Origin: Candidatus Doudnabacteria bacterium
Lineage (GTDB): Bacteria > Patescibacteriota > Doudnabacteria > UBA920
Direction: 5' to 3'
DNA length: 44,294 nucleotides
Assembly: GCA_023245955.1 (NCBI GenBank)
Contig: JAHFJI010000001.1
Coordinates: 1-44,294, forward strand
The notes under the pieces are model-generated. The model ran no database searches. It saw only the letters and a program-made list of their open reading frames with translations, and was not told where the DNA came from. Of this stretch, positions 4,486 to 32,759 are shown one piece after another. The position numbers and the translations under genes are program-made. Positions within the stretch are counted from its first letter, which is position 1, and each line of letters starts with the position of its first letter.

Positions 4486-4495
4486 AGATGTTTTT

Positions 4496-4570
4496 TGGAG
4501 GTGCGTGTGGGAGTTGCACCCACGCATGGCGGTTTTGCAGACCGCAGTGTTACTACTTCACCAACGCACC
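4496..4570 (-). tRNA. tRNA-Cys(GCA)
   Basis: The reverse complement is GGTGCGTTGGTGAAGTAGTAACACTGCGGTCTGCAAAACCGCCATGCGTGGGTGCAACTCCCACACGCACCTCCA. The acceptor pairs GGTGCGT/ACGCACC and the anticodon loop is CTGCAAA. Confidence 0.9.
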
Positions 4571-4631
4571 CATGGCTTAAAGCCCTCAAATTATAACGAA
4601 TTTTATAGCTCTAGGGCAATAGCTGTGTTAT

Positions 4632-4655
4632 AAAAAACAGCCCAGCCAAGGGCTG
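4632..4655 (-). terminator. terminator downstream of the 4673-5323 gene
   Basis: On the minus strand: CAGCCC-ttggct-GGGCTG followed by TTTTTT. Confidence 0.5.
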
Positions 4656-4672
4656 AGCCGTTTTAGATTTAT

Positions 4673-5323
4673 TTAGTTAGCCAAGGCTAATTCTTTGTTT
4701 ATAATGGTACCAGTAGTTGTGGTGTTTAGCTTAGCAAGTCTAGTAGCTTCGGCTTTGGCTGTAAGCTCGTTCATTTCTTTTTCTACCTTTTCACAGCCAC
4801 GTAACCAGTTTGGTGAACCTGGCACTACGTATACCTTTAACTTCTTTTTACAAGTATTGTACTTGTCTTTATAAATAGGTTTTTCAAGTAAGTCACTAAC
4901 AGCTTTAAAGCCGTCGTAGGGAGTGGTAAATTGTCTCCATTGGCTGTGGCCAGGTTTTACACCTACACTACCACAGTTAAAGTTTGCAGCCCGTTTACAG
5001 TAGTTGCTCTCCACAAAAGTGATACCAAGGGCATGTTGCCACTGTGGAAGAGTAACTATCTGATCTGCGTATGGTGCAAGTGGAGAACCTTTGGACTCTA
5101 GATAGTCTTGTAGAGACTTTACTAGTTCGTCGTTACTGGTTATATCGCTCATGCTTAAGCCTGTGTTTAGCGCATCTGGTTTAAGCTCAAACACCATTAC
5201 ACTATTGTTGCTTGCTATTGGTTCTGAAGCGAGGCTGGCGTGTGGGAAGATAAAACCGATTACAGGAATAAACAAGCTAATAGCTAGTATATGTATTTTA
5301 GATGTTAGGTTGGGAGTTTTCAT
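4673..5323 (-). CDS. secreted hypothetical protein (signal peptide)
   Basis: 216 aa. The N-terminus MKTPNLTSKIHILAISLFIPVIGFIFPHASLASEP looks like a Sec signal. No family recognised. Confidence 0.6.
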   Translation of the reverse strand: MKTPNLTSKIHILAISLFIPVIGFIFPHASLASEPIASNNSVMVFELKPDALNTGLSMSDITSNDELVKSLQDYLESKGSPLAPYADQIVTLPQWQHALGITFVESNYCKRAANFNCGSVGVKPGHSQWRQFTTPYDGFKAVSDLLEKPIYKDKYNTCKKKLKVYVVPGSPNWLRGCEKVEKEMNELTAKAEATRLAKLNTTTTGTIINKELALAN

Positions 5324-5677
5324 TTTGGCAATAACTCCTTTCAGTCTGGGTAAGGGTTTTATCCTTTACCTTTAATGCATTAGCCTAACTCTTGAGCGGT
5401 GCGGTATGAGTGAGCCAATAATAAAAGCGCTCTTTTGGAGCACTTCTTATGACAGGAGTATACATAATTAGGGGCTTTTGGTCAAGTCTTTATTGCCAGT
5501 TCTAGCTTTATATAAGCCATAAATCGTTTTTTTGCTCGCGATAATGCTCTAAAAACACTGTCAATAGCCAAGTCAGTTTGACTTATCTTTATAAATCTAT
5601 CTACTTTTACACTTTATGGCTTATACATGCCATATATTTGATGTAAACTTAGTAATTTTTGGCTATATTCACCAAAA

Positions 5678-5708
5678 TCAAAAACCAGCACTCATAGCTG
5701 GTTTTTGA
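5678..5708. terminator. perfect 12-bp stem hairpin with flanking A/T runs (bidirectional terminator-like)
   Basis: TCAAAAACCAGC-actcata-GCTGGTTTTTGA. Confidence 0.45.
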
Positions 5709-5792
5709 TTTGTGCACGTGTAGATGCAAAGTATCCTGAAGCCTATATCAGACCTACTACTGAGTTGTTTTATCTAATCCTCTCTACACTAC

Positions 5793-5833
5793 AAAAAAAA
5801 TAAAAGACATCCACTAAAGTGAATGTCTTTTAT
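5793..5833 (-). terminator. terminator ending the 5835-5997 RNA-like region
   Basis: ATAAAAGACAT(C/T)CAC stem with a TAAA loop, followed on the minus strand by a T8 run. It is near-identical in design to the hairpin at 5998-6038. Confidence 0.55.
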
Positions 5834-5834
5834 T

Positions 5835-5997
5835 TGGGGCGGGTAAGGGGAATCGACCCGCCCACGGCTATGTTCAATGCGCTACGCTTATTTCACATAA
5901 CGCCTAACGCGAGCCCGCCACTTGCATTGCTCCAAGTATTCGCAATGCATCCCACAAAGCCGGGACCGTTCCCGTTCGATTCTTCTTACTCCTTTCC
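5835..5997 (-). ncRNA. unclassified structured RNA / tRNA-Gly-derived element
   Basis: ORF-free and bounded by two terminators. Its 3' end GGGTCGATTCCCCTTACCCGCCCCA copies the 3' end of the neighbouring tRNA-Gly, with one T missing from the T-loop. Internal hairpins include GCATTGC/GCAATGC. The 5' end (GGAGTAAGAAGAATCGA) can pair with the 3' end. Confidence 0.35.
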
Positions 5998-6038
5998 AAA
6001 AAGATAAAAACCACACCTAAAGGTGAGGTCTTTATCTT
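5998..6038 (-). terminator. terminator after tRNA-Gly
   Basis: AAAGATAAA(A/G)ACC(A/T)CACC stem with a TAAA loop and a T-rich tail on the minus strand. Confidence 0.55.
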
Positions 6039-6112
6039 TGGAGCGGGTAAGGGGAATCGAACCCCTATCCCCTCCTTGGCAAGGAGGAGTTCTACCATTG
6101 AACCATACCCGC
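6039..6112 (-). tRNA. tRNA-Gly(GCC)
   Basis: The reverse complement is GCGGGTATGGTTCAATGGTAGAACTCCTCCTTGCCAAGGAGGGGATAGGGGTTCGATTCCCCTTACCCGCTCCA. Confidence 0.9.
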
Positions 6113-6282
6113 TCGTCACAGTTTGCTCCAAGTTTCAAGTTTTGCCTTTTAGGCAAAAGCATTTCACTTTCCGCAACTATTCCTCTAACTTTTACGCTTA
6201 ACCTCACAAAGCTTCAGCCCAAGTGTAAAAGTTTATTCAAACAATTTCTGGTCGAAGACCATGAGCGAGTCTTCGAGTCGAA

Positions 6283-6357
6283 TGGTGCCTCGGGTCAGAA
6301 TCGAACTGACAACGCAAGCCTCTTCAGGGCTTCGCTCTACCATTGAGCTACCGAGGC
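6283..6357 (-). tRNA. tRNA-Phe(GAA)
   Basis: The reverse complement is GCCTCGGTAGCTCAATGGTAGAGCGAAGCCCTGAAGAGGCTTGCGTTGTCAGTTCGATTCTGACCCGAGGCACCA. Confidence 0.9.
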
Positions 6358-6386
6358 TGGTTTTCTAAAGCTTCTAACTATTGCTT

Positions 6387-6466
6387 GGTGGACCCGCTGA
6401 GCGGGTCTAACACCACGCTAATCACGCTGAGCGTGATTGCCAGTACGCTAAGCGTACTAAGCGTGG
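6387..6466 (-). repeat. three tandem small hairpins of one design in the tRNA-Val/tRNA-Phe spacer
   Basis: The hairpins are GACCCGCTGAGCGGGTC, AATCACGCTGAGCGTGATT and AGTACGCTAAGCGTACT. CCACGCT/AGCGTGG encloses the last two. Confidence 0.5.
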
Positions 6467-6539
6467 TGGACGATACAGGACTCGAACCTGTGACATCTTC
6501 GGTGTAAACGAAGCGCTCTACCAACTGAGCTAATCGTCC
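6464..6539 (-). tRNA. tRNA-Val(UAC)
   Basis: The reverse complement is GGACGATTAGCTCAGTTGGTAGAGCGCTTCGTTTACACCGAAGATGTCACAGGTTCGAGTCCTGTATCGTCCACCA. Confidence 0.9.
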
Positions 6540-6639
6540 TTATGGCTTGAGTATTATACTAAATCACTAAAAATAAATCAATCTAGTTTACTTGCTATAT
6601 AGGCAGTTTATTCATATAATATCAAGGCAATTGAAGCTT

Positions 6640-6726
6640 GCCCAGGTGGCGGAACTGGTATACGCGCATCCTTGAGGTGGATGTGGGAGCAATCCCGTGG
6701 AGGTTCAAGTCCTCTCCTGGGCACCA
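6640..6726 (+). tRNA. tRNA-Leu(GAG), class II
   Basis: GCCCAGGTGGCGGAACTGGTATACGCGCATCCTTGAGGTGGATGTGGGAGCAATCCCGTGGAGGTTCAAGTCCTCTCCTGGGCACCA. Confidence 0.9.
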
Positions 6727-7290: not shown

Positions 7291-10254
7291 GTGATCAGAG
7301 CACCAAATAAAGAATTGTTTGTTATTGTTTTTGCGTTTTATTCCAATAGCAAAAATAGAAGTATGCTTGGTACAACCTTAGAAAAAAAATCAATCTCGTT
7401 TTTTATTTTGCTGTTTTTATTCTGGCAGACGTGTGTGGCCGGCTTTTTTTTATTTAGTGTTAAACCAGCTAGCGCTACAGTTGTAACTAACGATACGACT
7501 GGAAATTATACAGATGATTTTGCAGATGGAACTGGCCTTTCCAGCACAAGCAATGCCGCTGTAGATGTGGCAAGCGGAACTGTAAAATTAACTAATGGTA
7601 GTAGCGGTTTTACCGCGCCATTTAACACTAGTGGGTACGTTATTATAAATAAAATTGTACCAGTCAGTGTTGCCAAGTGGGGGACGGTCACCATAACACC
7701 AACAACACCAACCGGTACAACTGCGGGGGTGCAAGTTATAGACGAAGAAGGAACACTTTTTTCCGATTCGCTTGTGCCGGGAAACAGCGCCGGTATTACC
7801 ACTTCGTCTTTTAGTATTTCGGATTTGTCCGTAACCAGAACATCCACGCCCAATAGCAATAGCAGTAATGCAAAGTTTGGCCGCATAGCTTTTAAAATAC
7901 TACTCACAACTTCGGATACATCTGTTACTCCTTCGGTAAATAGTTTCGCCTTTTCTTGGACAGTCAGCCAGGGAGACTTAAGCGCTTCGCCTATAGCAAG
8001 CACAGCCTGGGCTGCCCCAAGAGGTAATAACCAGGCTACTGCTCGCGGCACTTACAATTCTAGCGGAATGTATCCGGCACTCCGCTGGAAAAAAACTATT
8101 GGAATTGATAGTGGCGGACCTTTTGTTCGGGGTGTTGGCGACACTGTGTACTATAAAACTTCGGGTGGCATTGTCACTTGGCCCACCGTTAACGACGGTA
8201 CTTTAACGTCTATAAATAAAAATACTGGAGCAACCCAGTGGAGTAGAGTTTTTTCCGGTAATGCTTTTACCAATACAGATTTTACTCTCTCCGCAAACGG
8301 AACTATATATCATTCAGACCAATTCCATGATATGTTCATGGCTTTTGACGGAACAGACGGTAGTCTTAAATGGACGTATCAATTTACGAGCGGGCATAGT
8401 AATACGGAAGCATCTATAGGTTCAGACGGAACTATTTACACCATACGTACCGACGATAGCACTTTCGTTAACGTGTATGCCTTTAACCCAGACGGCTCGG
8501 TTAAATGGATAAAGACAGTTGTACCAAATGGGAGTAAGTTTTCTGGAGGACCAATTTCTATTGGCAGTGATGGCACAGTCTATTTTGTTACCCAAACGTA
8601 CGACAACAGTTTTAACAATACAAATAACGGACTTTTGTACGCGCTTAACCCGACCGATGGCTCTACAAACTTTACCTATGCTACCGGTGATTCGAGCCTC
8701 TATCCGGTTATAGACTCGAGTGGCGTAATTTATGTTGCCAATACTTCTTTAGCCTCCTTACCCAAGAGCATAACCGCGGTAAATTCAAATGGAACACTTA
8801 AGTGGGTGTATAGTTTAGGCACGACCACCCAGTCTTGGAGTTCGCTTGCCTTGCGACTAGACGGCGTGCTACTAGCAGAACGTGTTACCTCCACCTATCC
8901 CACAACCGGTGGTCTGGTAGAAGCTATAAACACTTCGGACGGTACACTTGCTTGGTCAAAACCATTTAGCGACAACAATGGAATTTTTACCCACGTCTTT
9001 ATGACTAATGCGTCTAATGGTTTTTACCGTTCCAGTGTGTTAATACCTGCGAGTGCATCGTTTTCCTTTTTCGACTCGAGCGGGAATAACAAGTGGAACA
9101 TAGTAAGAGACGGCGGAATTGGGTCTAATACTATTATTTACCAGTATGCCATGGAAGATGAAGACGGCAATTTATACATTAATGCAAACCATGCTGGGAT
9201 AGAAGACGTAATTGTTAACACGGTGCCTTGGACTTTGCAAGCTTCTACTAGCACGGTAGCGCCCATCCACGGCGATGCAATTCTATTTTCTGTTACTACT
9301 TCCATGCTGCAAACAAACCCATTAACTGGAGATAGCAATCAAATGCAAGCTGTTATGGATAATGGCACCAAAGTGCCACTTACTTATTCTTCAACAAATA
9401 GTTCAGGTAACACCGTTTGGTCTAGTGCCTATTACACTATTCCAGGTAGCATGGCCTACGGAAGGCATGCGTATACTGTTGAGGCAAACGCAGCTGGGCT
9501 CCAGACAGATGTCCCAGTTAATTTTGCTTCTCCAGCCACTAACTCAAGTAACACTGGTTTAACTACAACTGGCGAGTTTAGTGTGCAAGCAAGTGGCAGT
9601 GGTTTGCCGTCTGGCGCGTATGAACTCCCTAAAATTCCTATTGGAGGCTTTGCTATAGTAGTGAACCATGGAGAGGGTGTAGCAGCGGACAGGAAAGTAA
9701 CGCTACACTTTAATGCCGGTGCAGATGTTAAAAAAATAGCTCTTTCTATGTCTAGCGACTTTGTTGGAGCAAGCCAAGAGCCTTATACAGAAAGTAAATT
9801 GTGGGATGTATGTTCTATCTATTCCGGAGCAGTGGTTAAGCCACTGTGCCCAGATGGTAATTACACGATATATGCAAAGTTTTATACAGCTTGGGGACAA
9901 ACATCGCCTGTTGTTTCAAAAGATATAATTTTAAAAACAGTGGTGGACAAGGTACATAATAAAAAAGTGGCTAGCGCCACTATTCATGCGCCGGCTCAAT
10001 ATGGAGAATTTACGCGCGATTTAAAATACGGTTCCAGTAATCAGCAGGTTATGTGGCTACAAAATGTATTAAAGAACTTAGGCTATTTTCCAGTGCTTGT
10101 TAAGTCGAGCGGTAATTTTGGTGCTATTACAAGGCAATCTTTAAAAAAGTTTCAGTGTGCAAGAAAGATTGCCTGCACAGGCGCGGGTTTAAAAAGTGAG
10201 TATGGCCAAGTGGGCGCAAAAACTAGAGACATACTAAACCAAGTAGTGCAATAA
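7291..10254 (+). CDS. large secreted protein with beta-propeller (PQQ-like) repeats and a C-terminal peptidoglycan-binding domain
   Basis: 987-aa ORF. The likely true start is the ATG at 7363 (MLGTTLEKKSISFFILLFLFWQTCVAGFFLFSVKPASA, a signal peptide). DG(S/T)(L/V)KW / GT(I/V)Y repeats recur. The C-terminus VMWLQNVLKNLGYFP...GNFGAITRQSLKKFQ is PG_binding_1-like. Confidence 0.8.
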   Translation: MIRAPNKELFVIVFAFYSNSKNRSMLGTTLEKKSISFFILLFLFWQTCVAGFFLFSVKPASATVVTNDTTGNYTDDFADGTGLSSTSNAAVDVASGTVKLTNGSSGFTAPFNTSGYVIINKIVPVSVAKWGTVTITPTTPTGTTAGVQVIDEEGTLFSDSLVPGNSAGITTSSFSISDLSVTRTSTPNSNSSNAKFGRIAFKILLTTSDTSVTPSVNSFAFSWTVSQGDLSASPIASTAWAAPRGNNQATARGTYNSSGMYPALRWKKTIGIDSGGPFVRGVGDTVYYKTSGGIVTWPTVNDGTLTSINKNTGATQWSRVFSGNAFTNTDFTLSANGTIYHSDQFHDMFMAFDGTDGSLKWTYQFTSGHSNTEASIGSDGTIYTIRTDDSTFVNVYAFNPDGSVKWIKTVVPNGSKFSGGPISIGSDGTVYFVTQTYDNSFNNTNNGLLYALNPTDGSTNFTYATGDSSLYPVIDSSGVIYVANTSLASLPKSITAVNSNGTLKWVYSLGTTTQSWSSLALRLDGVLLAERVTSTYPTTGGLVEAINTSDGTLAWSKPFSDNNGIFTHVFMTNASNGFYRSSVLIPASASFSFFDSSGNNKWNIVRDGGIGSNTIIYQYAMEDEDGNLYINANHAGIEDVIVNTVPWTLQASTSTVAPIHGDAILFSVTTSMLQTNPLTGDSNQMQAVMDNGTKVPLTYSSTNSSGNTVWSSAYYTIPGSMAYGRHAYTVEANAAGLQTDVPVNFASPATNSSNTGLTTTGEFSVQASGSGLPSGAYELPKIPIGGFAIVVNHGEGVAADRKVTLHFNAGADVKKIALSMSSDFVGASQEPYTESKLWDVCSIYSGAVVKPLCPDGNYTIYAKFYTAWGQTSPVVSKDIILKTVVDKVHNKKVASATIHAPAQYGEFTRDLKYGSSNQQVMWLQNVLKNLGYFPVLVKSSGNFGAITRQSLKKFQCARKIACTGAGLKSEYGQVGAKTRDILNQVVQ

Positions 10255-21610: not shown

Positions 21611-21684
21611 TGGTGGACCTATGGAGAATCGAACTCCACACTCATCCATGCCATGGATGCGTATTACCACTATACTATAGGCCC
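21611..21684 (-). tRNA. tRNA-Ala(GGC)
   Basis: The reverse complement is GGGCCTATAGTATAGTGGTAATACGCATCCATGGCATGGATGAGTGTGGAGTTCGATTCTCCATAGGTCCACCA. The G3-U70 pair is present. Confidence 0.88.
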
Positions 21685-21799
21685 TAGTGAAGTAGAATCA
21701 AGAAGCAAGAATTATGAATCAAGTATTAGGACGTCTTACGTTCAAGCCCTTACTTGATTCTTGCTTCGTGATTAGTGATTCTGTTTTTTGCTATTTCCC

Positions 21800-22081
21800 C
21801 TATCTTGTCGTGTTGGCACCTTGGATACTTGGAAGTTTTTGCTGTTGTGTTTGTTGCAATAGTCTACGCCAGTCGTCTACTTCTTTCTTAAAAGCTGGGA
21901 TTATACCCACTATGTTTAACACCCAGCCCAATACAACTAGTGCTATAACAAAGCCTAATACGTAGCCAAATCCAGTAAATAAACCATGACTAAGCGCTTT
22001 CCACCAATTATTACCCTTGTTTACTTGTTCAATATTCGCATTTATAGCTTTGAGATATTCTTTGAGCTCTGGGTCTAACAT
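21800..22081 (-). CDS. small membrane protein, hypothetical
   Basis: 93 aa with two hydrophobic segments (FTGFGYVLGFVIALVVLGWVLNIVGIIP). Confidence 0.55.
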   Translation of the reverse strand: MLDPELKEYLKAINANIEQVNKGNNWWKALSHGLFTGFGYVLGFVIALVVLGWVLNIVGIIPAFKKEVDDWRRLLQQTQQQKLPSIQGANTTR

Positions 22082-22174
22082 TTATTTTATTTTTAATTTT
22101 ATGCCTATATTATACCAAAACATTTAATTTTGGTCTTTAGCTCCTATTTTATACTTTATTCCAGTATGTAAAAC

Positions 22175-22249
22175 TGGTGCCCTCGGCAGGAATCGGACCT
22201 GCATCTACGCGTTAGGAGTGCATTGCTCTATCCATTGAGCTACAAGGGC
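22175..22249 (-). tRNA. tRNA-Arg(CCU)
   Basis: The reverse complement is GCCCTTGTAGCTCAATGGATAGAGCAATGCACTCCTAACGCGTAGATGCAGGTCCGATTCCTGCCGAGGGCACCA. Confidence 0.85.
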
Positions 22250-22360
22250 AATTTCCTCCAAATTGTAGCACAAATGCTCTATATATAGATAATCCTCTGT
22301 GTTATAGTCTTAGTAATTATAGCTGTCAAAGATGACCATTGACACTCTGGCGAGTTGTAA

Positions 22361-23758
22361 TTGTATCTTATGATAAGAATACTTACTTTAATTAAGCAGA
22401 AACTCACCCAACCCCTATTTTTACGGCTAGTTTTTGCCATGCTAATGAGCTCTCTTTTTTTAGAGGTGAAATACCCAATAATAAACAGTTTCGGCTATTT
22501 TTTAGGTGAAAAAAAGGATTTTACCATAATATTTGCTTATTTAAGCGATATTATTCTGTTAGGATGGATTTTCATCGCTATTTACTATAATTTACCCTTA
22601 AGTAAAAGGGAAAATAGATATCTTGGGGAAAATTCATCCTTTGCATCACTTTTACTAATAATATTAATAGTTACATCATATTATATTAATTATAGCAAGC
22701 TAATAATACCTATTATATCTATATATATATTAATATATCTTACTAAGCTTATTGTTTTACATGGAACATTGAGTATATGTTTAGATGACCTGTTTAAAAT
22801 ATTTAAAGGAGTTTTTTTACTATTTATAGGTCTAGAATGTGCCTTGGCGATATATCAATTTTGGAATCAGGCTAGTTTAGGTTTACAAAAGGTGGGGGAG
22901 TCCATGATTGGACCATACATATTTAGCGTGGCCAAAGTAGAAGCTTTTGGTCAGGTGTTTATTAGAAGTTATGGAACTTTTGCTCATCCAAACGTATTTG
23001 GGGCTTTTTTGGTTATTGGCTTAGTTATTAGTCTTGCAGCATTTATCAATGCAAATCTTAAGTCAAGGTTGGTACTTCTTTTACTTGTAGGTATTCAAAC
23101 TTTTGGCTTAACTCTAACCTTTTCTAGGTCAGCGTGGCTTGTGGCCATGTTGGCTATTCTTATATTTGTATGTTTAACGTGGAACATTGATTTGAGTGTG
23201 GGGGAAAAGTTGTATCCAGCTGTATTGTTAATCTTGTTAAGTTTTGTGGTTATTGGAATTATCTACTTGCCGTTTATAGCTGAAAGGGGACGGGTAGCTG
23301 GGACGACTGCTTACACAGAAAGAACAAACTACAACACTGCTGGGTTAAAAATGATTATAGATTATGCAGTGTTTGGAGTGGGCCCTGGGCAAAGTTTGCT
23401 TCACATGGAACACTATATGCCAGGTAGGATAGAGCCATGGGATATACAACCCATACACAATTATTATTTACTCTTTACTACTGAACTCGGTCTACCTGCA
23501 TTTTTTGTGTTTGCTCTATATATATCCTATGTACTACAAAAGTCTTTCCGTGTTTATAAGGCCATGACAAATTTAGACGTTGAATTTATTTGCCTGCTAT
23601 CTTGTTTAATTGCTATTTTGATTTTAATGATGTTTGACCACTACTTTTACACTTTAGAATCTCCAGCTATACTATTTTGGGTAGTCTTGGGGCTACTGGT
23701 AAATAAATTGTATAGATTGGAGAAGATAGGGGACATCCAGAACAGAATTATGAATTAG
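22361..23758 (+). CDS. O-antigen ligase/polymerase-like polytopic membrane protein
   Basis: 465 aa with about 10 or more hydrophobic helices. The central SRSAW...FG.GPG pattern resembles the Wzy_C family. The ATG at 22370 is the likelier start. Confidence 0.7.
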   Translation: MYLMIRILTLIKQKLTQPLFLRLVFAMLMSSLFLEVKYPIINSFGYFLGEKKDFTIIFAYLSDIILLGWIFIAIYYNLPLSKRENRYLGENSSFASLLLIILIVTSYYINYSKLIIPIISIYILIYLTKLIVLHGTLSICLDDLFKIFKGVFLLFIGLECALAIYQFWNQASLGLQKVGESMIGPYIFSVAKVEAFGQVFIRSYGTFAHPNVFGAFLVIGLVISLAAFINANLKSRLVLLLLVGIQTFGLTLTFSRSAWLVAMLAILIFVCLTWNIDLSVGEKLYPAVLLILLSFVVIGIIYLPFIAERGRVAGTTAYTERTNYNTAGLKMIIDYAVFGVGPGQSLLHMEHYMPGRIEPWDIQPIHNYYLLFTTELGLPAFFVFALYISYVLQKSFRVYKAMTNLDVEFICLLSCLIAILILMMFDHYFYTLESPAILFWVVLGLLVNKLYRLEKIGDIQNRIMN

Positions 23759-24096
23759 GAGTTAAGAGTTTTGAATTTAGGATTTAGAATTTCTTCATTC
23801 CTGACTCATAATTCATAATTCTTGATTGTCCCCGCCGCTAGCTCAAACTATACCCTTTCAGGGCAAGGACTTTCAGCCGCTACCCATTTTCTTTATACTA
23901 TTCTGCTATCGATTAGAGTTCTGCAAATGTTTTAATGATGTGAGTGGTAGACCGGTATTTAAAGCGTTTCCGACATGCTCCAATGTTTACATTCAAGAGA
24001 ACTGTATTTTAGAGTAGGAACTACGAGGACTTTTAGTCCAAGCGTCCCTCAACCTATGGACTTTCAGTCCATAGTGCGTTGAGTCGGCATTTGCTT

Positions 24097-24170
24097 GGGC
24101 CTATAACATAGTGGTAGTGTGGGACATTCGCATTGTCCAAGCGGGAGTTCGATTCTCCCTAGGTCCACCA
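24097..24170 (+). tRNA. tRNA-Ala(CGC)
   Basis: GGGCCTATAACATAGTGGTAGTGTGGGACATTCGCATTGTCCAAGCGGGAGTTCGATTCTCCCTAGGTCCACCA. The G3-U70 pair is present. Confidence 0.88.
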
Positions 24171-27265: not shown

Positions 27266-28870
27266 TTATATTTGGAGAGGTCGCATAGTTGGTCTAGTGC
27301 GCTGGTCTCGAAAACCGGTAGGGGCGAAAGCTTCTCGAGGGTTCGAATCCCTCCCTCTCCGCCAGAAATCGAAATCGTTTTTTGAAGCCGAAATTGGGTC
27401 GCGCCGAAGGCGCGACACTAATGCATTCCCCCCGCCGAATTCAGAATCCAAAAGGGTTTTCCACGCTCCGCGTGGTTTAAAAAGGAGTGTTCGATCTTTG
27501 ATTTCAAAGTTCGAACCGACTTTTTTGAACAGATGAAGATTTTCTTCATCTGTTCTATCGTTTGCCAATTTCACATTGGTAATATTGAGTTTTAGAAATT
27601 TTTCCGTGAGTTCGAACCGATTATTCGCTTTTTGCTCAAAAGATGATAATTTTTCCTTGAAAAGCTGTTTTTGATGTACAAGCTTGTTTTTCATGTCGCG
27701 ATATTCTTCAAGCGATAAAGAATTATCGAGATAGAGTGTCATCAGCTTTTCAATCTTGTTTTCAATTGAAAAAATTTCATCTTTTGTATTTTGAACAAAA
27801 AGCGTAGACGATTGGACTTCTGATTGCCGATCTTTGTCATTTTCGGCAATCATCCATTTTGCCCAATCGTCTGGCAAAGAAACTTTTTTGATTTCATTTT
27901 GAATTTGAGAAGTGATGATGTCCTCACGAACATATCGCTGGTCGCAAGGATTTTTCCTTTTGGTACACCGCAAATAGTTATTTCCTTTTTGTCGTTCGGT
28001 AGTAATGAAACATCCGCAGACACAATGGAAAAATCCTCTGTACAAATATGGGTGTAAACCTTTACCTTTTGGCTTAGACTTTCTCATCATCACTTCTTGA
28101 ACGGAATCAAAAAGTTTCTTTGTGATAATCGGTTCGTGTTTTCCTTCGTGAATTTCGCCACCATATCGAAGGAGTCCGCAGAAAATCGGATTTTTAAGCA
28201 TGTTATGAATATTTGAAACAGAAAGTTCTTGCTCTTTTCTTGAACGCAATCCAAGTTCATTAACCGTGTCTCTAACTTGTCGGAGCGTATATTTGCCACT
28301 TCCATAGGCCTCAAACGCTCTTTTGATATATGGCGAGCGTTCAGGGTCTGGAATGATAACTTTCTTATCACTGTCGTTTAGATACCCCACAGGAGCGTTT
28401 TGAGGCCAAATACCATCCTTCAATTTTTGACGATGACCACGCTTGATATTTTCCGACAAGTTATCTACATAATACTTGGATTGCGAAAAAGCGATTGAGA
28501 GCATGAACTTTCCTTGAGGTGTTGGATCAAACCAAAAAGTTGAAAACTTTAAATCCTTGATGACTTCGGTATCAACAAAATAAATTATTTTCCCACCGTC
28601 TACCGAGTTTCTCGCAAGTCTATCGGGGTGCCACGCTAAAATTCCGTTAGCTTCACCAGCCTCCATGCGGAGAAGCATTTCATTAAAGACTGGCCGACCC
28701 GGAATCTTGGCGGTCTGTTTTTCCACAAAAATATCAATAACTTCGATTTGCTCTTTAACCGCTAACTCCTTGAGTTCGGCCAGTTGATCCGAAATGCTTC
28801 TCACTTGCCGATCTTTGTCATCGGTAGACTTGCGAGTGTATATAAAAAACTTTTTGGTTTGATTATTCAT
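27266..28870 (-). CDS. large serine recombinase (resolvase domain, recombinase domain, zinc ribbon, coiled coil)
   Basis: 534-aa ORF with N-terminal FFIYTRKSTDDKDRQVRSISDQ and a Cys cluster CVCGC..LRCTKRKNPC. The last ~70 codons run through repeat A and antisense across tRNA-Ser, so the true stop and tail are uncertain. Confidence 0.85.
   Translation of the reverse strand: MNNQTKKFFIYTRKSTDDKDRQVRSISDQLAELKELAVKEQIEVIDIFVEKQTAKIPGRPVFNEMLLRMEAGEANGILAWHPDRLARNSVDGGKIIYFVDTEVIKDLKFSTFWFDPTPQGKFMLSIAFSQSKYYVDNLSENIKRGHRQKLKDGIWPQNAPVGYLNDSDKKVIIPDPERSPYIKRAFEAYGSGKYTLRQVRDTVNELGLRSRKEQELSVSNIHNMLKNPIFCGLLRYGGEIHEGKHEPIITKKLFDSVQEVMMRKSKPKGKGLHPYLYRGFFHCVCGCFITTERQKGNNYLRCTKRKNPCDQRYVREDIITSQIQNEIKKVSLPDDWAKWMIAENDKDRQSEVQSSTLFVQNTKDEIFSIENKIEKLMTLYLDNSLSLEEYRDMKNKLVHQKQLFKEKLSSFEQKANNRFELTEKFLKLNITNVKLANDRTDEENLHLFKKVGSNFEIKDRTLLFKPRGAWKTLLDSEFGGGNALVSRLRRDPISASKNDFDFWRRGRDSNPREAFAPTGFRDQRTRPTMRPLQI
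27274..27364 (+). tRNA. tRNA-Ser(CGA), class II
   Basis: GGAGAGGTCGCATAGTTGGTCTAGTGCGCTGGTCTCGAAAACCGGTAGGGGCGAAAGCTTCTCGAGGGTTCGAATCCCTCCCTCTCCGCCA. Confidence 0.9.
27359..27478 (+). repeat. 120-bp repeat A, left copy (starts with the last 6 nt of tRNA-Ser)
   Basis: Exact reverse complement of 29033-29152, checked base by base. It contains the GC hairpin GTCGCGCC-gaa-GGCGCGAC. Confidence 0.9.
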
Positions 28871-29032
28871 ATGCTTAAAAACCTAAAAGGGCGACCATGT
28901 TGCACCAATATTACCTTTCGGCAAAATTGAACACAGTCGCCCGTCTAGATGCTCAAGCAAATAAAAAGCCGAAAGTGTCTAATATTGGTGCATTTCAATA
29001 TTACCATTTTTGAATTTGCATTGGCAAACGAA

Positions 29033-29152
29033 AAACCACGCGGAGCGTGGAAAACCCTTTTGGATTCTGAATTCGGCGGGGGGAATGCATTAGTGTCGCG
29101 CCTTCGGCGCGACCCAATTTCGGCTTCAAAAAACGATTTCGATTTCTGGCGG
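29033..29152 (-). repeat. 120-bp repeat A, right (inverted) copy
   Basis: Exact reverse complement of 27359-27478. It ends in TGGCGG, which is also the first 6 nt of repeat B. Confidence 0.9.
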
Positions 29153-29554
29153 TGTCTATTATACAAAATTCGAACTTATTTCGAAACTAATCCCGATGAT
29201 GAATGAATTCCGCCACGCCACAGCCTCCGCTCCACGACAGCCCGCAAGGGCTGTCCTTCCGCTTCTGCTGTGTCGCTCCGTCCTCGCCTGCAACCCTGCC
29301 CATGCTTCTTTTGTTTTGCCGTGGTTTTGATTTTCTTTTTTCGGTATGGGCGTGTGCAGGCGAGGGACGGGTTTCTCCTTGAGGGAGAAACTGGCGGAAT
29401 TCAAATGCGGACTCGGTTTTGCCAAAACTATTTTCTGGGGAAAAGGATTTGGCAAAACCTCGGCTGATTTTTACTGGGGATTTCTGCCCGCGCGGAGGAG
29501 GGGTCTGGGGAGGAATCCGCGCGGGTTTCCTTTCGGATTTTTTGGCGGCGGCTA
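29147..29554 (+). repeat. 408-bp repeat B, left copy (GC-rich, highly structured)
   Basis: Reverse complement of 31782-32189. Both ends were checked base by base, and identical 98-aa and 65-aa shadow ORFs cover the middle. Confidence 0.9.
29158..29186 (-). promoter_or_regulatory. outward-facing extended -10 promoter candidate in repeat B, reading across the core toward the recombinase gene
   Basis: The minus strand reads TTTCGA-N15-TGTATAAT. Confidence 0.35.
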
Positions 29555-29589
29555 TGGATAAAAAGGCTACAAAATGCTAAAATATTCTT

Positions 29590-30780
29590 ATGAAGTATCA
29601 CGATATTACTCAACATGAAATTGAGGCTCTCAAACATAATTACAACATGTCTGACGCTCATACTCATCAATCGCAATCTCCTACGCAAGAGGAGATTGTA
29701 AAGCGATTACCCGAGCTTTGGCATGAAGCGGAAAATACTCGCCAATATGACATGGAACAGAAGTTTCTTAAAAATTTCTTTCGTGTCCAAAAACAGGATT
29801 CTTTAGTCGAAGACAACAGTCGTTGTCTTCTCGTATACGCTTCATCTATTGCAATGGTAATTACTGCAAATTATCTGATGAAGAAAAAAATGAGTGTAAG
29901 TTTAATGCACCCTTGTTTTGACAACATCACTGATATTTTGAAGCACATGGAAGTACCAATTTCTCCACTGGAAGAAGACTGGTTGCGCGATTCAGAAAAT
30001 ATTTACGAGAACCTAAAGAAAAATGTAAAAACTGACGCTCTTTTTATCGTTGACCCCAATAATCCAACGGGATTTACTTTGACAGGAACAGCAAAAGATA
30101 CTTTTGAAACAAAAAAGGGATTTTTGGAATTATTCAGATATGCAAAAGACCACAATAAATTATTGATTTTTGATTTTTGCTTTGCTTCTTTTTTACTTCC
30201 TGACCCCGATTTAGGCATATTTGATTTATATAAAGAACTTGATAATTCCGGTGCGAGTTATATTACGATTGAGGACACCGGAAAAACATGGCCACTTCAA
30301 GATACAAAAGTCGCTATTCTCACAACAAGTAAAGATATATTTGATGAAATTTACAATATCCATACCGCCTATTTGTTAAATGTTTCGCCTTTTATTTTGA
30401 ATGTAGTAAATCAATATATTTATGATTCAGAAAAAGATAATTTTGCATCAGTTTTTGATCTTTTAGAAAAAAATCGAGCATTGGCAAGAGAAGTCTTAAA
30501 AGATTCTATCCTTGAACCACTAGAACCAATTTCAAAAGTATCTGTGCTTTGGTGTAAAATAAAAGATGATTCAATTAAGGCAACTGAATTAAAAGAATAT
30601 CTAACCAAATCCGATATTCATGTTTTGCCAGGTACATATTTCTTTTGGCATGACCAAGAAAAAGGAGAACATTTTATTCGTATTGCTCTTGCCAGAAACC
30701 CCGATATTTTTGAGAAAGGAATAAAAAAACTTAGAGAAGTAATTGATAATTATGGAAAAACTCACAGCACAAAAAATTAA
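29590..30780 (+). CDS. PLP-dependent aminotransferase (fold type I, class I/II-like)
   Basis: 396 aa with FIVDPNNPTGF (the N-P-x-N-P-T-G signature) and a lysine in IEDTGKTW at the expected PLP position. Confidence 0.75.
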   Translation: MKYHDITQHEIEALKHNYNMSDAHTHQSQSPTQEEIVKRLPELWHEAENTRQYDMEQKFLKNFFRVQKQDSLVEDNSRCLLVYASSIAMVITANYLMKKKMSVSLMHPCFDNITDILKHMEVPISPLEEDWLRDSENIYENLKKNVKTDALFIVDPNNPTGFTLTGTAKDTFETKKGFLELFRYAKDHNKLLIFDFCFASFLLPDPDLGIFDLYKELDNSGASYITIEDTGKTWPLQDTKVAILTTSKDIFDEIYNIHTAYLLNVSPFILNVVNQYIYDSEKDNFASVFDLLEKNRALAREVLKDSILEPLEPISKVSVLWCKIKDDSIKATELKEYLTKSDIHVLPGTYFFWHDQEKGEHFIRIALARNPDIFEKGIKKLREVIDNYGKTHSTKN

Positions 30781-31558
30781 AGGGGTATATATTCCTCTCA
30801 TCACTCCATTTTACAAAGGAGCTTTTGATGGTGAGTCAATGAAAAAACTTATTGATTCTGTTGAGCCTTTTGTCGCTGGTTATGTCCCATGCTTAAGTTC
30901 CGGTGAAGGTACAAAATTATCTAAAGATCAATGGATTGAGGTTGTAAAAACAGTACGAGAATTAACAGATAAGCCTGTTATTGCAGGAATAAAACGCGAA
31001 ACATTGAACGAAACGATTGAGCTTGCAAATATTGCAAGTAAACTAAAATGCGAAGCGATTATTGTTCCTATATCACAACAAAACGAGGAAGAAATTTTTG
31101 ATTATCTTTCACGATTATCAAAATCGGTTTCCTTACCGATTATTATCTACAACACTGAAAAGTATCATATAGATAATATAGAATTTCTTTTAAAAATTTC
31201 TACGATTGAAAATATTATTGGTCTCAAAGATTCATCAGAAAACCAAGAATTTTTTGACCAAGCTTGTAAATTACGCGCAGAAAACAAACTAAATATTGCG
31301 ATATTACAAGGTTTAGAAAATCAACTTAAAGATTCAAAAAATTCTGATGGTTTCCTGATTTCATTAGCGAATATTGAACCTCAACTTTGCAATGATGTAT
31401 TTATAAAACCTTCCTCCGTTTTAGATGAAAAAGTGATTGATATTTTTTGGAAATATAATCTAGGTAGTGCTAATTGGTTCATTACGCTCAAAGCACTTTT
31501 ATATGAGAGAAAAATTATAAATTCTGCTGAAGAAATATCTTTAGCAATAAAACCGTAA
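30752..31558 (+). CDS. DapA/N-acetylneuraminate-lyase family class I aldolase
   Basis: The track ORF starts at 30743; the ATG is at 30752 (MEKLTAQKIKGVYIPLITPF). The Schiff-base lysine context is IIGLKDSS. It overlaps the upstream gene by 29 nt. Confidence 0.7.
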   Translation: MEKLTAQKIKGVYIPLITPFYKGAFDGESMKKLIDSVEPFVAGYVPCLSSGEGTKLSKDQWIEVVKTVRELTDKPVIAGIKRETLNETIELANIASKLKCEAIIVPISQQNEEEIFDYLSRLSKSVSLPIIIYNTEKYHIDNIEFLLKISTIENIIGLKDSSENQEFFDQACKLRAENKLNIAILQGLENQLKDSKNSDGFLISLANIEPQLCNDVFIKPSSVLDEKVIDIFWKYNLGSANWFITLKALLYERKIINSAEEISLAIKP

Positions 31559-31562
31559 AATT

Positions 31563-31784
31563 ATGGAAAAAACAACAATTACAAAATCAGAGTTTGAGGC
31601 AATGGGCAAAGAATGGACTGCACTCGATACAGAGTATGACAATTTGTTTCAAGCATTTTTGGATAATCCTCATACCAAAACACAAGAAGAACTTTCAAAA
31701 TTTAAAGCTATGCAAAGTCGTCTATATGCAATAGAACTTGAGTTATATAAAGTTGCTGAAGGTACGATGATAATTCAAGATTAG
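31563..31784 (+). CDS. small helical protein, hypothetical (RDF-like role only speculative)
   Basis: 73 aa. Its TAG stop codon is the first 3 nt of the right copy of repeat B. Confidence 0.5.
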   Translation: MEKTTITKSEFEAMGKEWTALDTEYDNLFQAFLDNPHTKTQEELSKFKAMQSRLYAIELELYKVAEGTMIIQD

Positions 31785-32189
31785 CCGCCGCCAAAAAATC
31801 CGAAAGGAAACCCGCGCGGATTCCTCCCCAGACCCCTCCTCCGCGCGGGCAGAAATCCCCAGTAAAAATCAGCCGAGGTTTTGCCAAATCCTTTTCCCCA
31901 GAAAATAGTTTTGGCAAAACCGAGTCCGCATTTGAATTCCGCCAGTTTCTCCCTCAAGGAGAAACCCGTCCCTCGCCTGCACACGCCCATACCGAAAAAA
32001 GAAAATCAAAACCACGGCAAAACAAAAGAAGCATGGGCAGGGTTGCAGGCGAGGACGGAGCGACACAGCAGAAGCGGAAGGACAGCCCTTGCGGGCTGTC
32101 GTGGAGCGGAGGCTGTGGCGTGGCGGAATTCATTCATCATCGGGATTAGTTTCGAAATAAGTTCGAATTTTGTATAATAGACACCGCCA
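31782..32189 (-). repeat. 408-bp repeat B, right (inverted) copy
   Basis: See 29147-29554. It ends in GACACCGCCA, 21 nt before the next gene start. Confidence 0.9.
32150..32178 (+). promoter_or_regulatory. outward-facing extended -10 promoter candidate driving the histidine phosphatase gene
   Basis: TTTCGA-N15-TGTATAAT ends 33 nt upstream of the ATG at 32211. Only 21 nt of non-element DNA precede that ATG. Confidence 0.4.
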
Positions 32190-32210
32190 TGGAATTATTA
32201 AGTCCTATAT

Positions 32211-32759
32211 ATGTCTATCCACATTACATATTTTGTTCACGGTACCACACCTGACAATGAAAAACATATTTCATCGGGCTGGAAAGACGTAGAACTTTCT
32301 CCATTAGGGGTACAGCAGTCCATAGAACTGAAAGACCAGACTAAGGGTCAAGCATTTGATGTTATCTTCTGTTCAGATTTAAAGCGAGCAGTGCAATCGT
32401 CTGAGTTAACCTGGAAAGGAATTTATCCGATTATCGTCGATGCCCGACTGCGCGAATGTAATTACGGAAAGTTGAATGGGGCATCTTCGGATATAGTAGA
32501 GCCAATGCAAGAAGCAGAGTGTCTCCACAATCCTTTTCCAGAAGGTGAGAGTTACGAAGATGTAAAAAAACGAGTTGCAGATTTTTTAAGTTTGCTTAAA
32601 TCTGAGTACGATGAAAGGCGAGTCGCGATTGTAGCACACAAAGCTCCCCAGCTTGCACTGGATGTATTGATAAAAAATAAAACTTGGGAACAGGCACTTG
32701 CAGACGATTGGAGAAAAAGAAAAGCCTGGCAACCAGGATGGGATTATACACTTAATTAA
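32211..32759 (+). CDS. histidine phosphatase (phosphoglycerate mutase-like) family protein
   Basis: 182 aa with N-terminal YFVHGTT.DN......G..D..LS..G..Q and a later AHKA pattern. Confidence 0.7.
   Translation: MSIHITYFVHGTTPDNEKHISSGWKDVELSPLGVQQSIELKDQTKGQAFDVIFCSDLKRAVQSSELTWKGIYPIIVDARLRECNYGKLNGASSDIVEPMQEAECLHNPFPEGESYEDVKKRVADFLSLLKSEYDERRVAIVAHKAPQLALDVLIKNKTWEQALADDWRKRKAWQPGWDYTLN

Follow-up and report, generated by a model that had tools for sequence, protein, structure and literature searches.

The window, the whole stretch of 44,294 nt analysed here from a Candidatus Doudnabacteria contig (JAHFJI010000001.1), contains a 4.8-kb mobile gene island (segment 27365-32189) at the end of a tRNA-Ser gene. 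The island was inserted into the tRNA 3′ end by a large serine recombinase (LSR), through attP × attB exchange within the sequence CCGC. A complete second attP, inverted and long-armed, separates the recombinase gene from the divergently oriented cargo operon, and this internal copy preserves the 3′ end of the recombinase gene as an intact spare. The layout recurs in dozens of Patescibacteria genomes, where the family is very common. In what follows, T denotes the 3′ part of the tRNA, H the host flank beyond the tRNA, and x and y′ the arms of attP, with a prime marking an inverted copy. The parts of the element are these:

27274-27364, plus strand: tRNA-Ser(CGA) (ARAGORN; Rfam tRNA, 55 bits)
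27359-27364, plus strand: attL core CCGCCA, the tRNA 3′ end
27359-27478, plus strand: repeat A, arm x, the P′ arm of attP; plus strand with two hairpins
27266-28870, minus strand: LSR gene in its integrated form, 534 aa (Pfam Resolvase, Recombinase, Zn_ribbon)
28871-29032, minus strand: upstream region of the recombinase gene, 162 nt
29033-29152, plus strand: inverted copy of repeat A, arm x′
29147-29152, minus strand: core of the internal inverted attP (TGGCGG on the plus strand)
29033-29206, plus strand: spare 3′ end of the recombinase gene, within ORF 28949-29206
29147-29554, plus strand: repeat B, arm y, the P arm of attP
29555-29583, plus strand: promoter-like site of the cargo operon, flush with the inner edge of repeat B
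29590-30780, plus strand: cargo gene 1, class I/II aminotransferase-like protein, 396 aa (Pfam PF00155)
30743-31558, plus strand: cargo gene 2, DHDPS-family protein, 271 aa (Pfam PF00701)
31563-31784, plus strand: cargo gene 3, 73-aa ORF with no family match
31782-32189, plus strand: inverted copy of repeat B, arm y′, the P-type half of attR
32184-32189, plus strand: attR core CCGCCA, the last 6 nt before the host flank
32190-32759, plus strand: native flank (21 nt) and His_Phos_1 gene (start at 32211)

Recomputation returned exactly the coordinates, repeat lengths, perfect identity, 162-nt upstream region and 21-nt gap given in the first-pass annotation. One inverted repeat (27359-27478 and 29033-29152; 120 nt, 100% identical) brackets the LSR gene and the other (29147-29554 and 31782-32189; 408 nt, 100% identical) brackets the three cargo genes, with the two overlapping by the 6 nt TGGCGG at 29147-29152. 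Chance cannot account for perfect inverted repeats of these lengths. The minus strand of repeat A at 27359-27478 supplies the codons for the final 38 residues of the recombinase body. A conserved P-type half-site, in which TTCGAA and the core are 16 nt apart, takes up the first ~45 nt of repeat B, and the remainder is G+C-rich with many hairpins. A terminator-like hairpin lies in the x′ arm (29050-29036, minus strand), and the region upstream of the recombinase gene has a promoter-like site at 29027-28998. This region is 162 nt long in the window versus ~21 nt in most relatives, and the start codon lies ~21 nt inside the upstream arm in most loci.

The attachment sites can be assigned as follows: attB consists of a B-type half-site, formed by the T-arm and the 3′ half of the acceptor of the tRNA, then CCGC and an unspecific flank; attP is y′-CCGC-x; attL (T-CCGC-x), in which the tRNA half-site is retained as the left half, makes up the left junction, and attR (y′-CCGC-H) the right one. 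The earlier reading of the three junctions as attL, an inverted attP and attR that share arms is borne out by related loci. The site y′-CCGC-x, at the junction upstream of the recombinase gene, is conserved across loci, and a half-site of the form TTCGAAC-N16-CCGC lies just outside the distal repeat A arm in essentially every related locus. This indicates that x′-core-y is a conserved site and no accident of one genome. The spacing between TTCGAA and CCGC across these loci is 11 nt in the tRNA and 16 nt in y′, which fits the 5-bp offset between attB and attP described for large serine integrases (PMC11722253). The flank of the far junction is always non-conserved, H having no consensus where T and y′ are nearly invariant, and where readable it contains a terminator hairpin of the host at a distance of 8-10 nt from the core. 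The order at the junctions is strict, T always joining x and y′ always joining H. The 6-nt core CCGCCA proposed earlier holds for the window, but CCGC alone is invariant across the family, being the only sequence (4 nt) common to attL and attR in 9 of 17 loci; the longer core is thus specific to this window. Because the second, inverted attP lies between them, x and x′ surround the recombinase segment and y and y′ the cargo segment. The empty site, for which a search had been suggested, was found in a relative (L131) that is syntenic on both sides (RNase HII, glycosyltransferase, Hsp20), where tRNA-Ser(cga) ...CTCTCCGCCA is followed by 9 nt and then by the His_Phos_1 start codon.

The recombinase gene does lie between the repeat A arms, as first annotated, but its ORF runs on past repeat A and covers another 93 nt of tRNA antisense sequence, a feature that had been missed. 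In this integrated form, the residues after ...DFDFW-R are encoded by the tRNA antisense strand. The native ORF crosses attP, its W-R codons being the core TGG CGG, and ends in a conserved tail of 17-21 residues encoded in y. Since the native ORF spans attP, integration through this site at the 3′ end of the gene swaps the tail for tRNA-antisense sequence. The spare 3′ end in the window reads ...PRGAWKTLLDS...DFDFWR-CLLYKIRTYFETNPDDE and then a stop codon across the internal attP, and has the conserved native tail. Among 66 unique tails, the codons beyond the half-site show an entropy of 1.18 at third positions versus 0.52 at positions 1 and 2, and the pN/pS of the tail codons is 0.25. The native tail is found in only ~10% of recombinases, which indicates that the two orientations are far from equilibrated.

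GTDB genomes yielded 79 loci with recombinases 67-90% identical to that of the window. In 59 of 68 loci the 3′ end of the recombinase gene meets a tRNA-Ser gene, whatever its anticodon. Arms of the ~120-nt repeat are at least 99% identical in 35 of 53 loci and 95-99% identical in a further 7 (42 of 53 at ≥95%), and the second repeat, around variable cargo, was found in 21 of the 31 loci with enough flank. The cargo differs among loci and comprises restriction-modification systems, Fic, protease and metabolic enzymes. Horizontal spread is indicated by the presence of recombinases 70-90% identical in different classes of Patescibacteria and beside four distinct tRNA-Ser genes, and the layout is shared by sister recombinases at tRNA-Ala and tRNA-Glu. 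Literature searches found neither a description of a layout with a spare inverted attP nor a natural counterpart of two inverted serine-integrase attP sites, in line with the novelty claimed for the architecture; yet the element is no singleton but a member of a large family.

Natural variants carry the recombinase segment in either orientation, even where the recombinases are at least 90% identical. Protein clusters at ≥90% identity contain tails of both types, and P0061 and P0128 are identical up to the core. In L083 and L084 the tRNA-Ser gene lies directly upstream of the recombinase gene; the x arms of these flipped loci are non-identical, and exchange between different elements could have produced them instead of a simple flip. 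In L167, where both flanks are visible, the recombinase gene is co-directional with HTH and cargo genes. Tandem arrays with hybrid y′-CCGC-x2 junctions are seen in L061 and L001, the recombinase gene of L049 lies between two convergent tRNA-Ser genes, and L082 and L085 have attP-type sites on both sides of the recombinase gene and no tRNA, the arms of L085 being mosaic. The cargo has the same orientation in all loci examined, which would be unexpected if long perfect repeats recombined freely. Flipping had been proposed for both segments, and the variants support it for the recombinase segment but not for the cargo.

For many homologues the contig is ~2 kb long and breaks off at the repeats, a sign of the difficulty that this layout poses to assemblers, and chimeric or collapsed joins in a metagenome assembly might have created the layout. 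Such an artefact is extremely improbable. The same layout is present in dozens of independent assemblies from different assemblers, with arms that differ by up to 30% between loci but are identical within a locus, and in two closed chromosomes, OY969413.1 (L038) and OZ246398.1 (L033), of which the former has an isolate name that agrees with the Nanopore long-read MAGs of Microflora Danica (PMC12313526). Furthermore, De Bruijn assemblers cannot invent junction k-mers, and the repeat junctions are taken as real, as the first-pass annotation supposed. It is highly unlikely that the recombinase and the cargo are instead independent modules, each with terminal inverted repeats and a palindromic joint when free, that were inserted successively at the same core. 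Every unique segment does have its own perfect inverted repeat and shares only the core with its neighbours, and in L001 and L061 as many as five such pairs are strung together. However, the longer chains consist of tandem pairs of recombinase and cargo, each beside a tRNA or pseudo-tRNA end, and in all loci the recombinase segment lies on the tRNA side and the cargo segment on the flank side. The y′ half-site flanks the recombinase gene in all loci, even without a detectable cargo repeat, and cargo-only insertion (T-core-y) is absent from the loci gathered, all via the recombinase or the His_Phos_1 gene.

The two orientations among near-identical recombinases, along with the promoter-like and terminator-like sites at the repeat edges, would also suit a domesticated phase-variation switch, in which a host-serving invertase uses the repeats as inversion sites, expression of the cargo, recombinase or tRNA is toggled, and the resemblance to attachment sites is historical. 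With the start codon inside the upstream arm in most loci, the upstream context could matter. This reading is unlikely, given that the cargo is fixed in orientation and wholly different between loci, including typical mobile-island genes, that the empty site in L131 shows insertion, that the spread over classes and four tRNA-Ser genes speaks for horizontal transfer, and that the recombinase promoter-like site of the window lies within the invertible segment. A self-replicating circle as the main form of life, with integration secondary, is very unlikely. Here the inverted attP pair would amplify copy number by flipping a replication fork (Futcher mechanism), much as in the yeast 2-micron plasmid with its FLP recombinase. 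If the element excises, the ~4.8-kb circle deduced earlier is valid: attL × attR exchange would yield two long inverted, site-bearing repeats of 522 bp separating two unique arcs, one encoding the recombinase, and L082 and L085 have the recombinase gene between attP-type sites without a tRNA. The likeness to 2-micron nevertheless stops at topology. FLP is a tyrosine recombinase and the enzyme here a serine recombinase; 2-micron has an origin and partition genes and never needs integration, whereas a replication initiator, partition gene and recognisable origin are absent from the element and the relatives examined. Moreover, the cargo is unrelated from locus to locus, a viral and extrachromosomal collection held no relative, and every long contig shows chromosomal integration.

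The closest known systems include the large serine integrases of phages and integrative elements. Like the phiC31, Bxb1, A118/LI and SPbeta enzymes, the recombinase has a resolvase catalytic domain, a recombinase domain and a zinc ribbon, although its similarity to solved large serine integrases is very low (SPbeta and A118 integrases are distant PDB matches, E about 1e-5). As in those systems, exchange is of the attP × attB type at a very short shared core, and the outer recognition motif of the bacterial half-site lies 5 bp nearer the centre than that of the element half-site. A recombination directionality factor was not found. Serine integrases seldom target tRNA 3′ ends, as tyrosine integrases usually do, and this target sets the element apart from the systems named, as do the integrase ORF running across attP and the second, inverted attP, whose arms measure 120 nt and 200-430 nt where ~50 bp suffices for an LSR site. 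Two inverted attP sites block deletion and allow exchange or inversion. Engineered MiMIC and RMCE pads likewise hold a segment between two inverted attP sites (of phiC31), but that arrangement is artificial. L082 and L085, with the recombinase gene between two attP-type sites, resemble this arrangement, and L049 looks like the product of both attP sites meeting tRNA attB sites.

The integrase gene of Myxococcus phage Mx8 (intP/intX) reportedly contains attP, and the "suicidal" SSV-type archaeal integrases are outlined as having attP within the integrase gene (PMC7253208). In these systems, as here, integration alters the coding sequence of the integrase itself, in this case by replacing the last 17-21 codons, but the Mx8 and SSV enzymes are tyrosine recombinases. 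No integrase of either type is known to have a spare copy of the lost gene end beside a second attP, re-attachable by inversion. Tn4451 (TnpX), Tn5397 (TndX) and IS607 are likewise small cargo elements with a serine recombinase; they move by way of a circular form, but lack long inverted repeats and a tRNA target, and IS607 is described with a different domain order (PMC6188088). In Thermococcales, a plasmid integrase is reported to cause chromosome inversions between tRNA genes (PMC5495485). Similarly, a retained element-borne integrase site can recombine with other tRNA genes, and the pattern of L049 is that expected from such recombination, although the archaeal enzyme is a tyrosine integrase without an internal duplicated attP.

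Ultimately, an integrative island with an internal inverted attP that is live, and with a recombinase ORF that crosses attP and swaps its tail, is the probable explanation of the whole. The case for attL as a lasting substrate consists of the lack of conservation in H and the tandem arrays; counting against it, canonical LSRs are not known to recombine attP with attL. Recognition of attB may rest on the tRNA half-site, in which case attL would remain a target for attP and the internal attP would be live. Gene conversion may keep the arms identical, for which the mosaic arms of L085 count. As to the function that we infer for the internal attP, it would flip the recombinase segment, which would restore the native tail and place the gene downstream of the tRNA and co-directional with the cargo; it would take in further elements in tandem; and it would recombine with other tRNA-Ser genes.

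The island at tRNA-Ser occupies positions 27365-32189 of the window and comprises two segments, each enclosed by its own inverted repeat. The tRNA, repeats and genes that the first-pass annotation had placed here are all present in the sequence as it described them, namely:

27274-27364: tRNA-Ser(cga) gene (Rfam, 55 bits)
27359-27478 and 29033-29152: inverted repeat A, 120 nt, 100% identical, around the minus-strand recombinase gene (rec)
29147-29554 and 31782-32189: inverted repeat B, 408 nt, 100% identical, around three plus-strand genes

The two repeats overlap by TGGCGG, the complement of which (CCGCCA) closes both the tRNA and the right repeat, and the His_Phos_1 gene begins 21 nt past the right repeat end. 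The tRNA-Ser is complete through CCA at 27364, with its 3′ end regenerated after insertion at that end of the gene. The three genes of the cargo segment encode a class I/II aminotransferase-like protein, a DHDPS-family protein and a 73-aa open reading frame (ORF), and this A+T-rich cargo contrasts with the G+C-rich arms of repeat B. Ten tRNA genes lie in the 44 kb (among them those at 4400-6726 and 21611-24170), including a cluster of six. Only the tRNA-Ser is occupied by an element, and the window showed no further att-like site. An Rfam search of this element and of a related locus (L033) matched only the tRNA, and exact-sequence look-up of the window recombinase and aminotransferase returned no record.

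Its domains and the logic of its sites place the enzyme among the large serine recombinases, and the element is a tRNA-targeting integrative island. The protein matches the resolvase-type catalytic domain PF00239 at residues 9-153 (E = 3e-18) and the Recombinase domain PF07508 (E = 4e-16), and its motif YTRKS(15)TDD, with the serine nucleophile, aligns to the YCRVSTD motif of PDB 3g13. The zinc ribbon PF13408 scores 21.1 bits in the window protein, below the 25.3-bit cutoff; it is among the precomputed Pfam domains of most homologues, and the cysteine pattern CVCGC...C...C is found in the window protein. Large serine recombinases have a coiled-coil inserted in the zinc-ribbon domain, and residues ~340-440 of the window protein look heptad-like by eye. 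Solved serine integrases (e.g. those of SPbeta and A118) are only distantly similar.

Database matches to the recombinase number more than 7000 at E <= 1e-10, the best 120 of which are 73-98% identical; those that carry a name come from Patescibacteria. Many lie on contigs of ~2 kb, which is the size of the rec segment plus its arms. Seventy-nine loci from GTDB species representatives were analysed (numbered with the prefix L). Sufficient flank was available in 68 loci, and in 59 of these a tRNA-Ser gene adjoins the 3′ end of rec (anticodons gct in 21, gga in 19, tga in 10 and cga in 9); one more locus has tRNA-Asp there. In 35 of 53 loci the two copies of the ~120-nt inverted repeat agree at 99% or more, and in 7 more they agree at 95-99%. 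Of the 31 loci with 7 kb or more upstream, 21 have a second repeat, which begins 4-8 nt inside the distal repeat-A arm and measures 86-434 nt (mostly ~203-230 nt). Between loci the arm sequences diverge by up to ~30%; within a locus they are identical. The layout is also found in the closed chromosomes OY969413.1 and OZ246398.1. MFD isolate names agree with the Microflora Danica Nanopore long-read project (PMC12313526). Because the layout recurs across loci, its arms match within each locus and closed chromosomes carry it, a short-read chimera is excluded, and the double inverted-repeat layout proposed from the window alone is real.

The architecture extends to a wider clade than the tRNA-Ser family, since sister recombinases at other tRNA genes have the same double-repeat layout (L019:13305-15144 at tRNA-Ala; L065:11644-13375 at tRNA-Glu; L027 at tRNA-Asp), as does a 677-aa recombinase beside a pseudo-tRNA end (L001:3602-5635). 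These sister recombinases have their own arms and their own cores (CCACCA, TCACC). No relatives of the element were found in a scan of viral contigs. Among the tRNA genes themselves, ARAGORN calls a tRNA-Ser with anticodon ACT (A34) beside tRNA-Ser(GCT) in many of the genomes examined (L001:11707-11794; also L008, L013, L014, L017, L025, L049, L050 and L063); an unmodified A34 is unusual in bacterial tRNAs except tRNA-Arg(ACG). At L071:330-403 it calls a tRNA with anticodon TTA ('tRNA-Stop'), possibly a suppressor tRNA or a sign of recoding.

The arms of repeat A (x, with inverted copy x′) and repeat B (y, with inverted copy y′) much exceed the length of a serine-integrase site. The inner edge of x falls at an identical homologous position in all loci, directly after the hairpin CCACGCTCCGCGTGG; when x is read inward, a terminator-like hairpin ends it. 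The rec start codon lies only ~21 nt inward of this edge in most loci and 162 nt inward in the window. The y region of the window (29147-29589, copy 31782-32189) folds far better on either strand than shuffled sequence does (z = -4.8 and -6.0). Several near-perfect hairpins make it up. Some of them, for example CCGCGCGG...CCGCGCGG, reappear as modules of ~43 nt in y arms from other lineages, and another TTTTTTGGCGG at the inner end of y resembles the x′-core junction.

Just beyond the distal repeat-A arm, every locus carries a conserved half-site, ...GAAATACATTCGAACTTCGTCCAATACACA|CCGC, also where no cargo repeat is detectable. This makes the junction upstream of rec a conserved site, y′-CCGC-x, and the internal inverted attP is kept across the family. 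The junction on the tRNA side reads T-CCGC-x, where T is the 3′ part of the tRNA, and that on the far side y′-CCGC-H, where H is the host flank beyond the tRNA; no locus departs from this order. Across 20 nt, T and y′ hardly vary, and H is without consensus, consisting, where legible, of 8-10 nt followed by a host terminator hairpin. In 9 of 17 loci attL and attR have CCGC alone in common, and in the rest no more than 6-8 nt. Since those nine share nothing more, the exchange falls inside the 4-nt CCGC. A half-site symmetry search for the crossover dinucleotide found no consistent symmetric motif in x and limited the placement to CCGC; CC is our guess for the dinucleotide, because the polarity is strict and both CG and GC are palindromic. 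Alignment of the full 600 nt past the core proved too mosaic for a single model.

In large serine integrases, the motif of the second DNA-binding domain lies 5 bp nearer the centre in attB than in attP (PMC11722253). In each tRNA-Ser the palindromic T-loop motif TTCGAA stands 11 nt from CCGC, and in each y′ the distance is 16 nt, a comparison of left half-sites only. This offset fits the 5-bp rule, so T behaves like a half-site of the B type and y′ like one of the P type.

An empty counterpart of the site occurs in locus L131, which is syntenic with the window on both sides (RNase HII, His_Phos_1, glycosyltransferase, Hsp20) and has its tRNA-Ser directly before His_Phos_1: only GAGAAAATT separates a near-identical tRNA-Ser(cga) from the ATG of His_Phos_1. 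At the window locus, an uninterrupted site would join ...CTCTCCGCCA to TGGAATTATTAAGTCC. The junctions and this empty site together show 27365-32189 to be an island inserted at tRNA-Ser, with CCGC as its core, bounded by attL and attR and with a complete inverted attP inside. The reading as attL, inverted attP and attR put forward by the first-pass annotation, along with the empty site it had looked to related genomes to supply, is thus borne out by the conserved y′-CCGC-x, the TTCGAA offset, the strict junction order and L131.

The gene next to the insertion has a varied setting elsewhere. tRNA-Ser adjoins His_Phos_1 in several genomes, and homologues of the window's 'host' His_Phos_1 are cargo or att-adjacent on other contigs. 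In L106 and L114 an HTH gene is followed directly by a His_Phos_1 gene, and in L121 and L111 attR-like or y-arm sequence lies immediately 5′ of it. The His_Phos_1 gene may have a past as island cargo.

The first-pass annotation overlooked that the rec ORF (27266-28870, 534 aa) continues through repeat A and on along the tRNA antisense strand. Where attP follows, the rec frame instead runs through W-R (TGG CGG) into y for 17-21 codons, giving a native tail with the motif R-C-[VL]-L-[DN]-[EK]-V-R-x-Y-F-x-x-N-P. Codons past the DNA half-site have a third-position entropy of 1.18 vs 0.52 at first and second positions, and a pN/pS of 0.25, so the native tail is a genuine, selected part of the protein. 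The integrated form has in its place a variable stretch encoded by the tRNA antisense strand (FWRRxRDSNPR...); of the 120 best homologues, 77 tails are of the tRNA type and 12 native, the remainder being truncated or otherwise unclassified. Both types occur within single protein clusters (at least 90% identity) from different samples, and two homologous proteins, P0061 and P0128, are the same up to the core codons. The compared reading frames show that the rec ORF crosses attP and that integration alters the protein: going through the attP at the 3′ end of the gene, it swaps the native tail for a tRNA-antisense one. The integrase gene of Myxococcus phage Mx8 likewise contains attP. A spare rec 3′ end is intact in the internal copy in the window, at 29033-29206 (...DFDFWR-CLLYKIRTYFETNPDDE*).

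Several natural arrangements, besides the two tail types within single clusters, speak for an active internal attP. In L002 the recombinase is 97-98% identical to that of the window and its 3′ end enters y, not a tRNA. In L083 and L084 a tRNA-Ser lies immediately 5′ of rec in the same orientation, and in L167, with both flanks visible, rec is co-directional with the HTH gene and cargo, the opposite isomer of the usual divergent layout. Two convergent tRNA-Ser genes flank rec in L049, and attP-type sites lie on either side of it in L082 and L085. L061 holds two complete elements in tandem with a hybrid y′-CCGC-x2 junction, and L001 a chain of three; in such arrays an incoming attP must have recombined with a resident attL or attR. 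Near the L001 chain, a 191-nt perfect direct repeat (1897-2087 and 5472-5662) comprises an AT-rich flank and a degenerate tRNA-Ser 3′ end (GACTCGTGACCGAATCCCACCGTCTCCGCCA); it provides extra attB-like sites, and two further elements lie there in tandem.

These loci show that the rec segment occurs in nature in two orientations. The flips of both segments that had been proposed from the window therefore fare unequally: that of the rec segment is matched by both orientations in related loci, but for the cargo segment no evidence of a flip was found, its orientation being constant in every locus examined, with the HTH gene at the internal attP and a non-coding region at attR.

A search for circle closure (cargo distal end-y′-core-x-rec 3′ end) returned L082 and L086, in which a gene converges on rec across attP; their flanks gave no match to known cargo ends. 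At L082:9541-12869, rec lies between attP-type sites with perfect 120-nt x arms, and a 320-nt y′ region ends at a host junction in a second core (GCGG), with the half-site type of the 677-aa recombinase family. L082 could be the same element integrated via a second attachment site, i.e., a circular permutation.

Since H is unconstrained, the enzyme would recognise its target chiefly through the tRNA half-site. If so, attL would still be a usable partner for attP, which would explain the tandem arrays. Recombination of the internal inverted attP with attL would flip the rec segment, and this flip is predicted to be reversible because the same two site types are regenerated. It would restore the native tail and leave rec downstream of the tRNA, co-directional with the cargo; that the flip controls activity or directionality is speculation. 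Excision of the island by attL x attR would yield a circle with two inverted 522-bp attP copies.

A bolder reading takes the rec segment for a self-inverting cassette that makes a one-way serine integrase a reversible switch of its own activity, which we consider unlikely. Here, the tRNA half-site alone would decide target recognition, attL would thereby stay open to the internal inverted attP, and the recombinase could invert its gene repeatedly with no directionality factor. In one orientation the enzyme would carry a junk, tRNA-encoded tail and the island would be locked; in the other, the conserved 17-21-residue tail would be re-attached, rec would sit behind the tRNA promoter, co-directional with the cargo, and the island would be mobile. 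The tail would then be a built-in directionality or regulatory module, recalling engineered integrase-RDF fusions. If true, these islands would be a class of their own, 'flip-flop' integrative elements, and probably the chief means by which Patescibacteria shuttle cargo.

Other accounts of the repeats were weighed against an island with an internal inverted attP. Independent modules with palindromic joints are excluded by the T-x and y′-H polarity and by the retention of y′-core-x without a detectable cargo repeat. A single-strand 'dumbbell', in which the repeats would rebuild a double-stranded attP from ssDNA, has parallels in CTX phage and integron attC, where a double-stranded site is rebuilt in this way; it was rejected on mechanism, because the concerted double-strand breaks of a serine recombinase would leave chromosome ends capped by hairpins. 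De novo formation of the repeats with every integration is unsupported, given the constant inner boundary of x, arm identities that range from 100% down to 86%, and the mosaic arms of L085, whose inner 55 nt are identical and whose outer 65 nt come from another lineage. These mosaic arms, and the bimodal distribution of identity (about 100% or below 93%), fit inherited repeats kept alike by gene conversion.

The suggestion of a 2-micron-like circle survives in its topology, as deduced from the integrated form, since the excised element would hold the two inverted attP copies; the likeness is of topology only, and the replicative lifestyle it might imply is unlikely. The 2-micron plasmid has its own origin and partition genes, none of which occurs here or in the relatives examined, and its FLP is a tyrosine recombinase, unlike the serine enzyme of the element.

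Within the integrated island, the cargo has conserved ends. The first gene after y in 17 of ~28 loci encodes a 65-70-aa XRE/HTH_3 protein, divergent from rec (L033 ~9353-9560, minus strand; L167:2303-2497; also L010, L038, L050 and others). It is absent from the window and its closest relative, L001, where the y arms are twice as long. This protein is a candidate regulator or directionality factor; no directionality factor of the element was identified. At the distal end, next to the attR-side arm and within the cargo segment, 10 other loci have a conserved non-coding sequence of ~260-340 nt (L033:4234-4575; L036:3996-4335; L010:4638-4900; L038:7989-8250; others) that closes with a terminator-like hairpin (11 loci aligned). 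This sequence, a candidate element-encoded non-coding RNA, has no Rfam match and is absent as such from the window. It is G+C-rich, 78-93% conserved between loci with unrelated cargo, and opens with a promoter-like AT-rich stretch; a few pairs covary. Gene content between these ends is unrelated across loci: Dam methylase, DpnII and an AAA_13 protein in L033, a Fic protein in L038, a protease in L010, and HinfI, methylases and an AAA_15 protein in L167.

The 534-aa enzyme differs from Hin/Gin invertases, which have ~190 aa and a C-terminal HTH domain. Integrons use the tyrosine integrase IntI, attI and attC-bounded cassettes, whereas the element has a serine enzyme and segments between long inverted repeats. 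To our knowledge, two inverted attP around a segment otherwise occur solely in engineered cassette-exchange landing pads. The Mx8 integrase and those of the SSV type (PMC7253208) resemble rec in having attP inside their own gene, but are tyrosine enzymes. The literature covered, which omits much subscription literature, yielded no account of this architecture and none of serine-recombinase elements in Patescibacteria.

Three traits set the family apart: its serine integrase has tRNA genes as targets; the integrase gene runs across attP, so that the enzyme is edited on integration; and the element contains another attP, inverted, together with a spare end of the gene. It offers a natural system for studying directionality control without a separate directionality factor. 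Genome engineering may also gain from it compact integrases directed to tRNA genes, as well as natural cassettes with 'two inverted attP'. Because its repeats break short-read assemblies, metagenome-assembled genomes of Patescibacteria probably under-represent the family. These bacteria (the candidate phyla radiation) account for much of bacterial diversity. Across them, the recombinase family marks small islands at tRNA-Ser with restriction-modification systems, toxins and metabolic genes, and such islands may be a major route of gene exchange in Patescibacteria.
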